From an uncultured Methanomassiliicoccales archaeon (GTDB lineage: Archaea > Thermoplasmatota > Thermoplasmata > Methanomassiliicoccales > CAZOLG01), in NCBI GenBank assembly GCA_964580935.1, contig CAZOLG010000003.1:217098-281097 (forward strand): 64,000 nt of DNA. The letters are read 5' to 3'. The position numbers were made by a program, and so were the translations under genes. Shown piece by piece: positions 24,898-24,992 of this stretch; positions within the stretch are counted from its first letter, which is position 1, and the number at the start of each line of letters is the position of its first letter. The notes under the pieces were generated by a model. That model had not been told where the DNA came from and searched no databases. It was given only the letters and a program-made list of their open reading frames with translations.

Positions 24898-24992
24898 GGG
24901 CCCGTAGCTCAGCTAGGTAGAGCAATCGGCTCTTAACCGATGGGTCGAGGGTTCGAAAGGTTTGGAAAAACCCGAATATCCCTCCGGGCCCG
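24898..24992 (+). tRNA. tRNA-Lys (anticodon CUU) containing a 21-nt intron in the T-loop
   Basis: Hand-folded as follows:
- Acceptor stem: GGGCCCG/CGGGCCC
- D arm: GCTC-AGCTAGGTA-GAGC
- Anticodon arm: ATCGG-CTCTTAA-CCGAT
- Variable loop: GGGTC
- T stem: GAGGG/CCCTC
- Discriminator: G

The T stem encloses 28 nt instead of 7. Removing 21 nt restores TTCGAAT. CCA is not encoded. Confidence 0.85.

Follow-up and report, generated by a model that had tools for sequence, protein, structure and literature searches.

The 64-kb stretch of archaeal DNA analysed here (the window) contains a tRNA-Lys(CUU) gene at positions 24898-24992 on the forward strand which is most probably functional and carries a 21-nt intron between T-loop positions 59 and 60, predicted to be spliced out through a strict bulge-helix-bulge (BHB) motif. 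The probability of this reading is estimated at about 0.93. It draws on the unconstrained fold of the gene, on the identity of its spliced form with intron-less genes at the same syntenic locus in related lineages, and on covariation within the intron across twelve distinct sequences.

Gene, splicing motif and genomic context

As read from the sequence, the gene is 95 nt long with the anticodon CTT at 24932-24934, and its segments run GGGCCCG-TA-GCTC-AGCTAGGTA-GAGC-A-ATCGG-CTCTTAA-CCGAT-GGGTC-GAGGG-[TTCGAAAGGTTTGGAAAAACCCGAATAT]-CCCTC-CGGGCCC-G, where the single brackets mark the segment enclosed by the T stem. The acceptor stem (GGGCCCG/CGGGCCC), D arm (GCTC/GAGC), anticodon arm (ATCGG-CTCTTAA-CCGAT) and T stem (GAGGG/CCCTC) form a complete cloverleaf with one exception, namely 28 nt inside the T stem in place of the usual 7. 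The 5' exon (24898-24957, forward strand) covers tRNA positions 1-59, comprising the 5' strand of the acceptor stem, the D arm, the anticodon arm, the variable loop, the 5' strand of the T stem and T-loop positions 54-59 (TTCGAA). It is followed on the same strand by the 21-nt intron AGGTTTGGAAAAACCCGAATA (24958-24978), deletion of which gives a 74-nt tRNA, and by the 3' exon (24979-24992) with U60, the 3' strands of the T stem (CCCTC) and acceptor stem (CGGGCCC) and the discriminator G73; CCA is absent from the encoded 3' exon. A preliminary description of this DNA had proposed a tRNA-Lys(CUU) with a 21-nt T-loop intron at precisely these coordinates, and the sequence, the fold and twelve orthologues all agree with it. 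Its statement that cuts after position 58 or 59 lead to one and the same product was borne out by a deletion check, in which removal of 21 nt at either point gave the same 74-nt product with the T-loop TTCGAAT. Because the A is repeated, a 58/59 cut is as compatible with the gene as a 59/60 cut.

The gene is accompanied by signals expected of a transcription unit, which were likewise read from the sequence. A putative BRE/TATA promoter element, cgatatctttattta (24859-24873, forward strand), ends 25 nt upstream of tRNA position 1; the 15-mer is identical and equidistant in two orthologues (L041 and L073), and A/T-rich boxes are found at the same distance in two others (L070 and L099), from which we infer that the box may act as an archaeal promoter. 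A run of five T residues (24995-24999, forward strand) begins two bases past the discriminator and, since archaeal transcription is generally known to terminate at oligo-T, is probably a termination signal.

Folded without constraint, positions 24947-24984 (forward strand) adopt the strict hBHBh' splicing motif in both the minimum free energy (MFE) and the centroid structure. Helix h is the T stem itself (GAGGG, 24947-24951, with CCCTC, 24980-24984; 5 bp), the central helix H pairs TTCG (24952-24955) with CGAA (24973-24976; 4 bp), and helix h' pairs GGTTT (24959-24963) with AAACC (24968-24972; 5 bp) below a GGAA loop (24964-24967). The two bulges are AAA on the 5' side (24956-24958) and TAT on the 3' side (24977-24979), all of these elements lying on the forward strand. 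The order drawn in the preliminary description (T stem, UAU, UUCG/CGAA, AAA, GGUUU/AAACC, GGAA), with its alternation of 5 bp, 3 nt, 4 bp, 3 nt and 5 bp, is reproduced by both RNAfold structures. The 95-mer has an unconstrained RNAfold MFE of -43.2 kcal/mol (z = -3.87), and none of 200 shuffled sequences was as stable. Among composition-preserving shuffles of the 21-mer, the strict register with a 4-bp H and an h' of at least 3 bp arises in 0.12%, a figure that falls to 0.0035% when h' is to have 5 bp or more, while a descriptive pattern of the motif had no match across 100 shuffled windows. A chance fold is excluded by the rarity of the strict geometry in both the shuffled 21-mers and the shuffled windows.

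With a 4-bp central helix, two 3-nt bulges on opposite strands and both outer helices present, the fold belongs to the strict hBHBh' class. Assignment to the relaxed class of introns (hBH, HBh' or BHL), in which a bulge is disrupted or missing or one outer helix is lacking, was rejected, as each bulge measures exactly 3 nt and each outer helix 5 bp. A self-splicing intron was also considered and rejected: the ribozyme core of group I and group II introns extends over hundreds of nucleotides, the insert has 21 nt, and no Rfam intron family gave a match at an E-value of 10.

Searches with standard tools gave little sign of the gene, as the preliminary description had anticipated for default tRNA finders. 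ARAGORN reported no tRNA in the 64-kb window, even with its intron option (-i), and Rfam gave no match in the window at the gathering threshold. In E-value mode, Rfam returned a single misaligned match of the unspliced gene to the tRNA model RF00005, with 28.4 bits against a gathering threshold of 29, and no other hidden tRNA was found within the window up to an E-value of 1. Removal of the insert at the symmetric bulge positions, however, yields a canonical tRNA. The spliced 74-mer is recognised by ARAGORN as tRNA-Lys(ctt) and is identical at 74/74 positions to the contiguous intron-less genes of the metagenome contigs L145 and L153 at the same syntenic locus. The covariance-model score of the intron-removed sequence, which the preliminary description had named as a point on which its proposal could fail, lies well above the gathering threshold of 29 at 71.9 bits on RF00005, as obtained on these identical natural genes.

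Prolyl-tRNA synthetase homologues and synteny place the source of the window in the Thermoplasmata, affiliated with the Methanomassiliicoccales. All of the best named matches to the synthetase come from Methanomassiliicoccales metagenome-assembled genomes (MAGs), with 65-76% identity, and the window holds typically archaeal genes including PAN, thermosome, GINS and type III RuBisCO with AMP phosphorylase, together with PCNA, TFS and Alba, which were identified by eye from translations. The tRNA gene is situated in a 340-nt gap between genes for a phosphoribosyltransferase (24087-24767, forward strand) and a receiver-PAS-histidine kinase (25107-27638, forward strand). In orthologous loci the tRNA is adjacent to a metallo-beta-lactamase gene and a GPN GTPase gene, whereas in the window the phosphoribosyltransferase and the histidine kinase have been inserted to its left and right. 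The phosphoribosyltransferase has no relative above ~54% identity and its best named matches are from Nitrospirae and Thaumarchaeota MAGs, which suggests that it may have been horizontally acquired.

Genes for the splicing endonuclease EndA and the ligase RtcB were both absent from the 64-kb window in Pfam searches of unassigned ORFs and in tblastn with the Methanocaldococcus jannaschii EndA, a query verified against PDB 1A79. A search for an integration scar was negative: integrases, duplicated attachment sites and partial tRNA copies are all missing around the gene. Elsewhere in the window are two genes related to tRNA modification, a GCD14/TrmI-type tRNA m1A methyltransferase (3891-4766, reverse strand), whose target adenine is in the intron-disrupted T-loop, and a Trm5/TYW2-type methyltransferase (54255-55274, reverse strand). 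The window also encodes a full-length NAD-dependent DNA ligase of the bacterial type, LigA (43511-45664, reverse strand), with adenylation, OB, HhH and BRCT domains, and a cluster of AMP phosphorylase-like, type III RuBisCO and IF-2B-family (ribose-1,5-bisphosphate isomerase-like) genes (39731-43443, reverse strand) that corresponds to the archaeal AMP salvage pathway. Two adjacent ORFs (37729-37992 and 38017-38616, both forward strand) look, by eye from their translations, like parts of a single membrane transporter whose gene may be frameshifted or interrupted.

Orthologous genes and the history of the intron

Related genes were collected by two scans. The first, in which each species was represented by one genome, looked for BHB-compatible inserts at 59/60 of tRNA-Lys genes with a pattern that enforced helix H, and its list shows the spread of such inserts rather than their frequency relative to other positions or other tRNAs. 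An insert at 59/60 was recovered in more than 115 tRNA-Lys genes of archaea, from Thermoplasmatota, Asgard and DPANN. Among the matches listed, 70 are from Thermoplasmatota, 25 from Asgard (Promethearchaeota/Thorarchaeota), 7 from DPANN, and one each from Nitrososphaera and Thermoproteus; a further 13 are unclassified or labelled Methanosarcinales, Methanobacteriota or Methanomicrobia, and one is an Asgard-type sequence on a bacterial-labelled contig. Two bacterial matches (L002 and L035) proved to be intron-less bacterial tRNA-Lys genes with downstream similarity by chance, and were left out of this breakdown. Among the matches listed, an h' of at least 3 bp is present by register in 73/121 of this wider set, and 30/121 show the strict motif in the MFE structure. 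The MFE-based figure is an under-count, because the MFE structure often leaves out A/U-rich H helices and the 5' bulge is 4-5 nt long in many inserts, and the register-based count is preferred, with the proviso that not all 121 are taken as strict motifs.

Several of these matches have features of their own. Most Thermoplasmatota tRNA-Lys(UUU) genes with a T-loop insert carry a second insert in the D-loop (61 loci among the matches listed), where a normal 5' end (GGGCCCGTAGCTCAG..GGTAG) is followed by ~25-35 extra nt before AGAGC, as in L047:5004-5137(+) and in L001, L007, L015, L056 and L069. A tRNA-Lys(UUU) with both inserts has two non-canonical introns, which interrupt both of the elbow-forming loops. 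In a member of the Micrarchaeota (L052), an EndA homologue (5424-6050, reverse strand), which matches M. jannaschii EndA at 40% identity across 131 aa, is encoded ~0.6 kb from an intron-bearing tRNA-Lys(CUU) (4946-5054, forward strand). The bacterial-labelled contig, named 'Candidatus Nanopelagicaceae bacterium', has an intron-bearing tRNA-Lys(CUU) of Asgard type (L100:6935-7038, forward strand) which is nearly identical to that of L086, and is probably mis-binned.

The second scan was run on metagenomes with the exon sequence alone fixed and 0-30 nt of anything allowed at the insertion site, and returned 32 contigs, among them 13 further syntenic intron-bearing ones and the intron-less L145 and L153. 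On four other contigs (L124, L133, L131 and L146), the same sequence from anticodon arm to 3' end is found without the T-loop intron and with a 5' part that is not tRNA-like, which suggests that another lineage has a different intron, in the D-arm, or a gene in split form.

Four genomes among the matches listed (L041, L070, L073 and L099) have exons identical or nearly identical to those of the window gene. They share a common neighbourhood, with Toprim, GINS and metallo-beta-lactamase genes upstream and GPN GTPase, PAN, HTH, DUF2240 and thermosome genes downstream, at 41-85% protein identity, and the order metallo-beta-lactamase, tRNA, GPN GTPase, PAN, HTH, DUF2240, thermosome is common to these four genomes and the 13 metagenome contigs at 48-85% protein identity. 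Together these loci give 12 distinct intron-bearing sequences with introns of 20-23 nt at a single insertion site. Pairing holds for 99.4% of cells when these sequences are aligned. There is next to no variation in the exons or in helix H, which is kept in 12/12 orthologues with one change from U-A to U-G. In helix h', by comparison, 4/5 pairs have changed on both sides (14 cells) and 98.3% of cells remain paired across the 12 orthologues. When the partners are slid out of register, 24-61% are paired, and none of 500 shuffles attained the observed score. The covariation set includes metagenome sequences retrieved with the insert left unconstrained, and the first five sequences alone give the same picture. 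Outside the structural pairs, the intron sequence shows no conservation. Judged from this alignment, selection acts on the shape of the intron and not on its sequence.

Selection on shape is what a splicing substrate predicts, and this rules against a pseudogene. A decaying tRNA pseudogene with a random 21-nt insertion in the T-loop and a fortuitous BHB-like fold would account for the rejection of the gene by standard finders and for an unspliced Rfam score just under the threshold. Moreover, a tRNA-Lys(UUU) could in principle decode AAG by wobble, in which case the CUU isoacceptor would not be strictly indispensable. However, pseudogenes are recognised by broken helices, lost conserved bases and a lack of conservation across species, none of which is seen here. 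The cloverleaf helices are intact and the exons identical or nearly so in 12 orthologues despite neighbouring proteins that share just 48-85% identity, the insertion site is constant, compensatory changes preserve h', the strict geometry has a chance of only ~1e-3 to 3e-5, and promoter-like and terminator-like signals are retained, so that such decay is hardly credible.

The history of the intron can be followed at the same locus. Natural intron-less alleles are present at L145:1204-1277(-) and L153:1040-1113(+). In a neighbour-joining tree of the adjoining GPN GTPase, L145 and L153 fall inside the intron-bearing clade as sister to the intron-bearing L070 with 99.5% bootstrap support, and the intron-bearing genes are monophyletic in 0/200 replicates. 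In a more distant lineage, which serves as outgroup, the tRNA-Lys(CUU) adjoining the GPN gene is intron-less. The simplest reading of this tree, built from a single gene by a single method, is that the intron apparently arose a single time, at the base of the clade, and was later lost precisely in the L145/L153 sub-lineage. The unchanged tRNA left by this loss implies that its function does not require the intron, which would most simply be a tolerated passenger that is kept spliceable by selection.

This bears on the alternative that survives best, which we nevertheless consider unlikely, namely that the intron is spliced out but retained for a function of its own, either in setting the order of maturation or in breaking up the attachment site formed by the segment from T-arm to 3' end. 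The recurrence of tRNA-Lys 59/60 inserts in Thermoplasmatota, Asgard, DPANN, Nitrososphaera and Thermoproteus speaks for such a role, as does the additional D-loop insert in many Thermoplasmata tRNA-Lys(UUU) genes, where both elbow loops are interrupted; the TrmI-type methyltransferase with its T-loop target is a circumstantial link and lies ~20 kb away in the window. However, the loss in L145 and L153 without any change to the tRNA shows no such need, the non-structural intron sequence is unconserved, and the neighbourhood of the gene is free of integrases, attachment-site duplicates and partial tRNA copies. A broader form of the idea, to which we give equally low credence, is that the tRNA-Lys 59/60 intron is no lineage-specific accident but either an old inheritance shared by Thermoplasmatota, Asgard and DPANN or the result of a strong insertion hot-spot, and that, together with the D-loop intron of Thermoplasmata tRNA-Lys(UUU), it makes splicing an obligatory checkpoint or a protection against integrative elements. 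If so, the checkpoint would precede elbow formation, T-loop modification and end processing or, alternatively, the interruptions would shield the gene from elements that integrate in the segment from T-arm to 3' end.

In cytoplasmic tRNAs, the D/T elbow depends on a 7-nt T-loop with U54, U55, C56 and A58. Retention of the insert in a mature tRNA with an enlarged 28-nt T-loop or an extra arm is very improbable given that the elbow bases are sequestered in helix H of the unspliced fold, that the geometry exactly matches the EndA substrate (PMC4090602), and that sister lineages carry the exact intron-less sequence at the same locus, which indicates that the 74-nt form is the functional molecule.

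Predicted splicing pathway

The splicing reading, to which we return here, can be set out by analogy with the canonical archaeal intron. The archaeal splice signal is a 4-bp helix between two 3-nt bulges, and this BHB motif is transplantable (Yoshihisa, PMC4090602). In the canonical intron, the central helix includes the first two bases of the anticodon (PMC4090602), and it can be deduced from this description that the canonical 5' bulge consists of positions 36, 37 and i1 and is cut after its second nucleotide. Transfer of this rule to the T-loop gene places the intron at 24958-24978 and the insertion site at 59/60.

The transcription, cleavage, ligation and order of maturation steps that we infer would proceed as follows. 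In the primary transcript, U54-G57 would pair with the CGAA of the intron 3' end to form the 4-bp central helix, with a 5' bulge made up of A58, A59 and the first intron base, a 3' bulge in which U60 follows the final two intron bases, and the T stem and the 5-bp intron hairpin as outer helices. EndA would cut after the second nucleotide of each bulge, so that the 5' exon would end in a 2',3'-cyclic phosphate and the 3' exon would begin with a 5'-OH, and RtcB would then join the exons to give the 7-nt T-loop UUCGAAU and probably circularise the intron. Formation of these ends by EndA and their ligation by RtcB constitute the archaeal pathway (PMC4090602, PMC5829648). Because U54-G57 would be sequestered until this point, the T-loop, its contact with the D-loop and its modification could follow only after splicing. 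The CCA end would be added post-transcriptionally.

The preliminary description had expected a broad-specificity EndA to accompany an intron at this position. This expectation does not hold, since strict hBHBh' motifs are recognised by all archaeal EndA types (PMC7714728, PMC5829648) and a broad-specificity enzyme, with loops of CSL/ASL type, is needed for relaxed motifs only (PMC5829648); with a strict motif, it is not required. The strict BHB is a substrate for each of the four archaeal EndA architectures, also outside tRNA, and the Haloferax EndA cuts BHB motifs in rRNA precursors and in an mRNA leader (PMC7714728), which indicates that the position of the motif is irrelevant. As deposited in the PDB, the EndA of Thermoplasma acidophilum has two units in one chain of 289-290 aa.

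Relation to known introns and consequences for annotation

Non-canonical BHB introns at position 59/60 of archaeal tRNA genes were reportedly described by Marck and Grosjean in 2003 and by Sugahara and colleagues in 2008. The site is listed among the non-canonical intron positions by Yoshihisa in 2014 (PMC4090602), and the window gene resembles the introns described there in its site, in its 4-bp helix with two 3-nt bulges and in the EndA/RtcB pathway that it would follow. Its length of 21 nt is inside the usual range of 11-129 nt. However, the published 59/60 examples come mainly from Crenarchaeota (Thermoproteales) and Nanoarchaeota and often have relaxed hBH or HBh' motifs, whereas the window gene has a strict hBHBh' motif and a Methanomassiliicoccales-affiliated Thermoplasmata host.

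The canonical intron at 37/38 has the same geometry and orientation, in that the exon provides the 5' strand of H and the 3' bulge abuts the exon-exon stem, and in both cases the cut comes after the second bulge nucleotide. Unlike the canonical intron, the one described here sits in the T-loop, leaves the precursor without a T-loop/D-loop elbow before splicing and is invisible to ARAGORN with the option -i. The targets of Haloferax volcanii EndA (rRNA processing stems and the HVO_1309 5' UTR; PMC7714728) exemplify a strict BHB that is cut irrespective of its position and host RNA, the very property on which splicing of the T-loop intron would depend, but there the outcome is rRNA maturation or shortening of a UTR, whereas here a tRNA loop would be restored.

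Older reviews credit the Euryarchaeota with canonical introns only. In the tRNAscan-SE 2.0 survey, 144 euryarchaeal genomes yielded 25 non-canonical introns; the rate was highest for Methanomassiliicoccales, where 6 were found in 3 genomes with 138 tRNA genes, or ~2 per genome (PMC8450103 Table S7). The claim in the preliminary description that such introns are unusual in genomes of euryarchaeal type is therefore right for Euryarchaeota overall, but fails for Methanomassiliicoccales, in view of this rate and of the 11 further distinct orthologous sequences with the same intron, and also in view of the wide occurrence of tRNA-Lys 59/60 inserts in Thermoplasmatota, Asgard and DPANN. The Methanomassiliicoccales introns of that table share an order-level lineage with the window gene, although the table gives counts only and the window organism has just 65-76% prolyl-tRNA synthetase identity to named Methanomassiliicoccales MAGs. 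The count of ~2 per genome would fit T-loop introns in two tRNA-Lys isoacceptors. A literature search returned no paper specifically on T-loop introns in Methanomassiliicoccales or in tRNA-Lys, and tRNA introns are not discussed by Borrel et al. (2014).

The feature is of a type already catalogued and is common in related archaea, and no new mechanism is involved. Its interest is that of a well-supported strict BHB intron outside the anticodon loop in a euryarchaeal branch, provided with natural intron-less controls and with covariation, at a locus where the intron was apparently gained once and then precisely lost. It also matters for annotation: with ARAGORN and with Rfam at the gathering threshold the gene is overlooked and a genome of this lineage would seem to be without a tRNA-Lys(CUU), so that an archaeal-mode, BHB-aware search is needed for the annotation of such genes.
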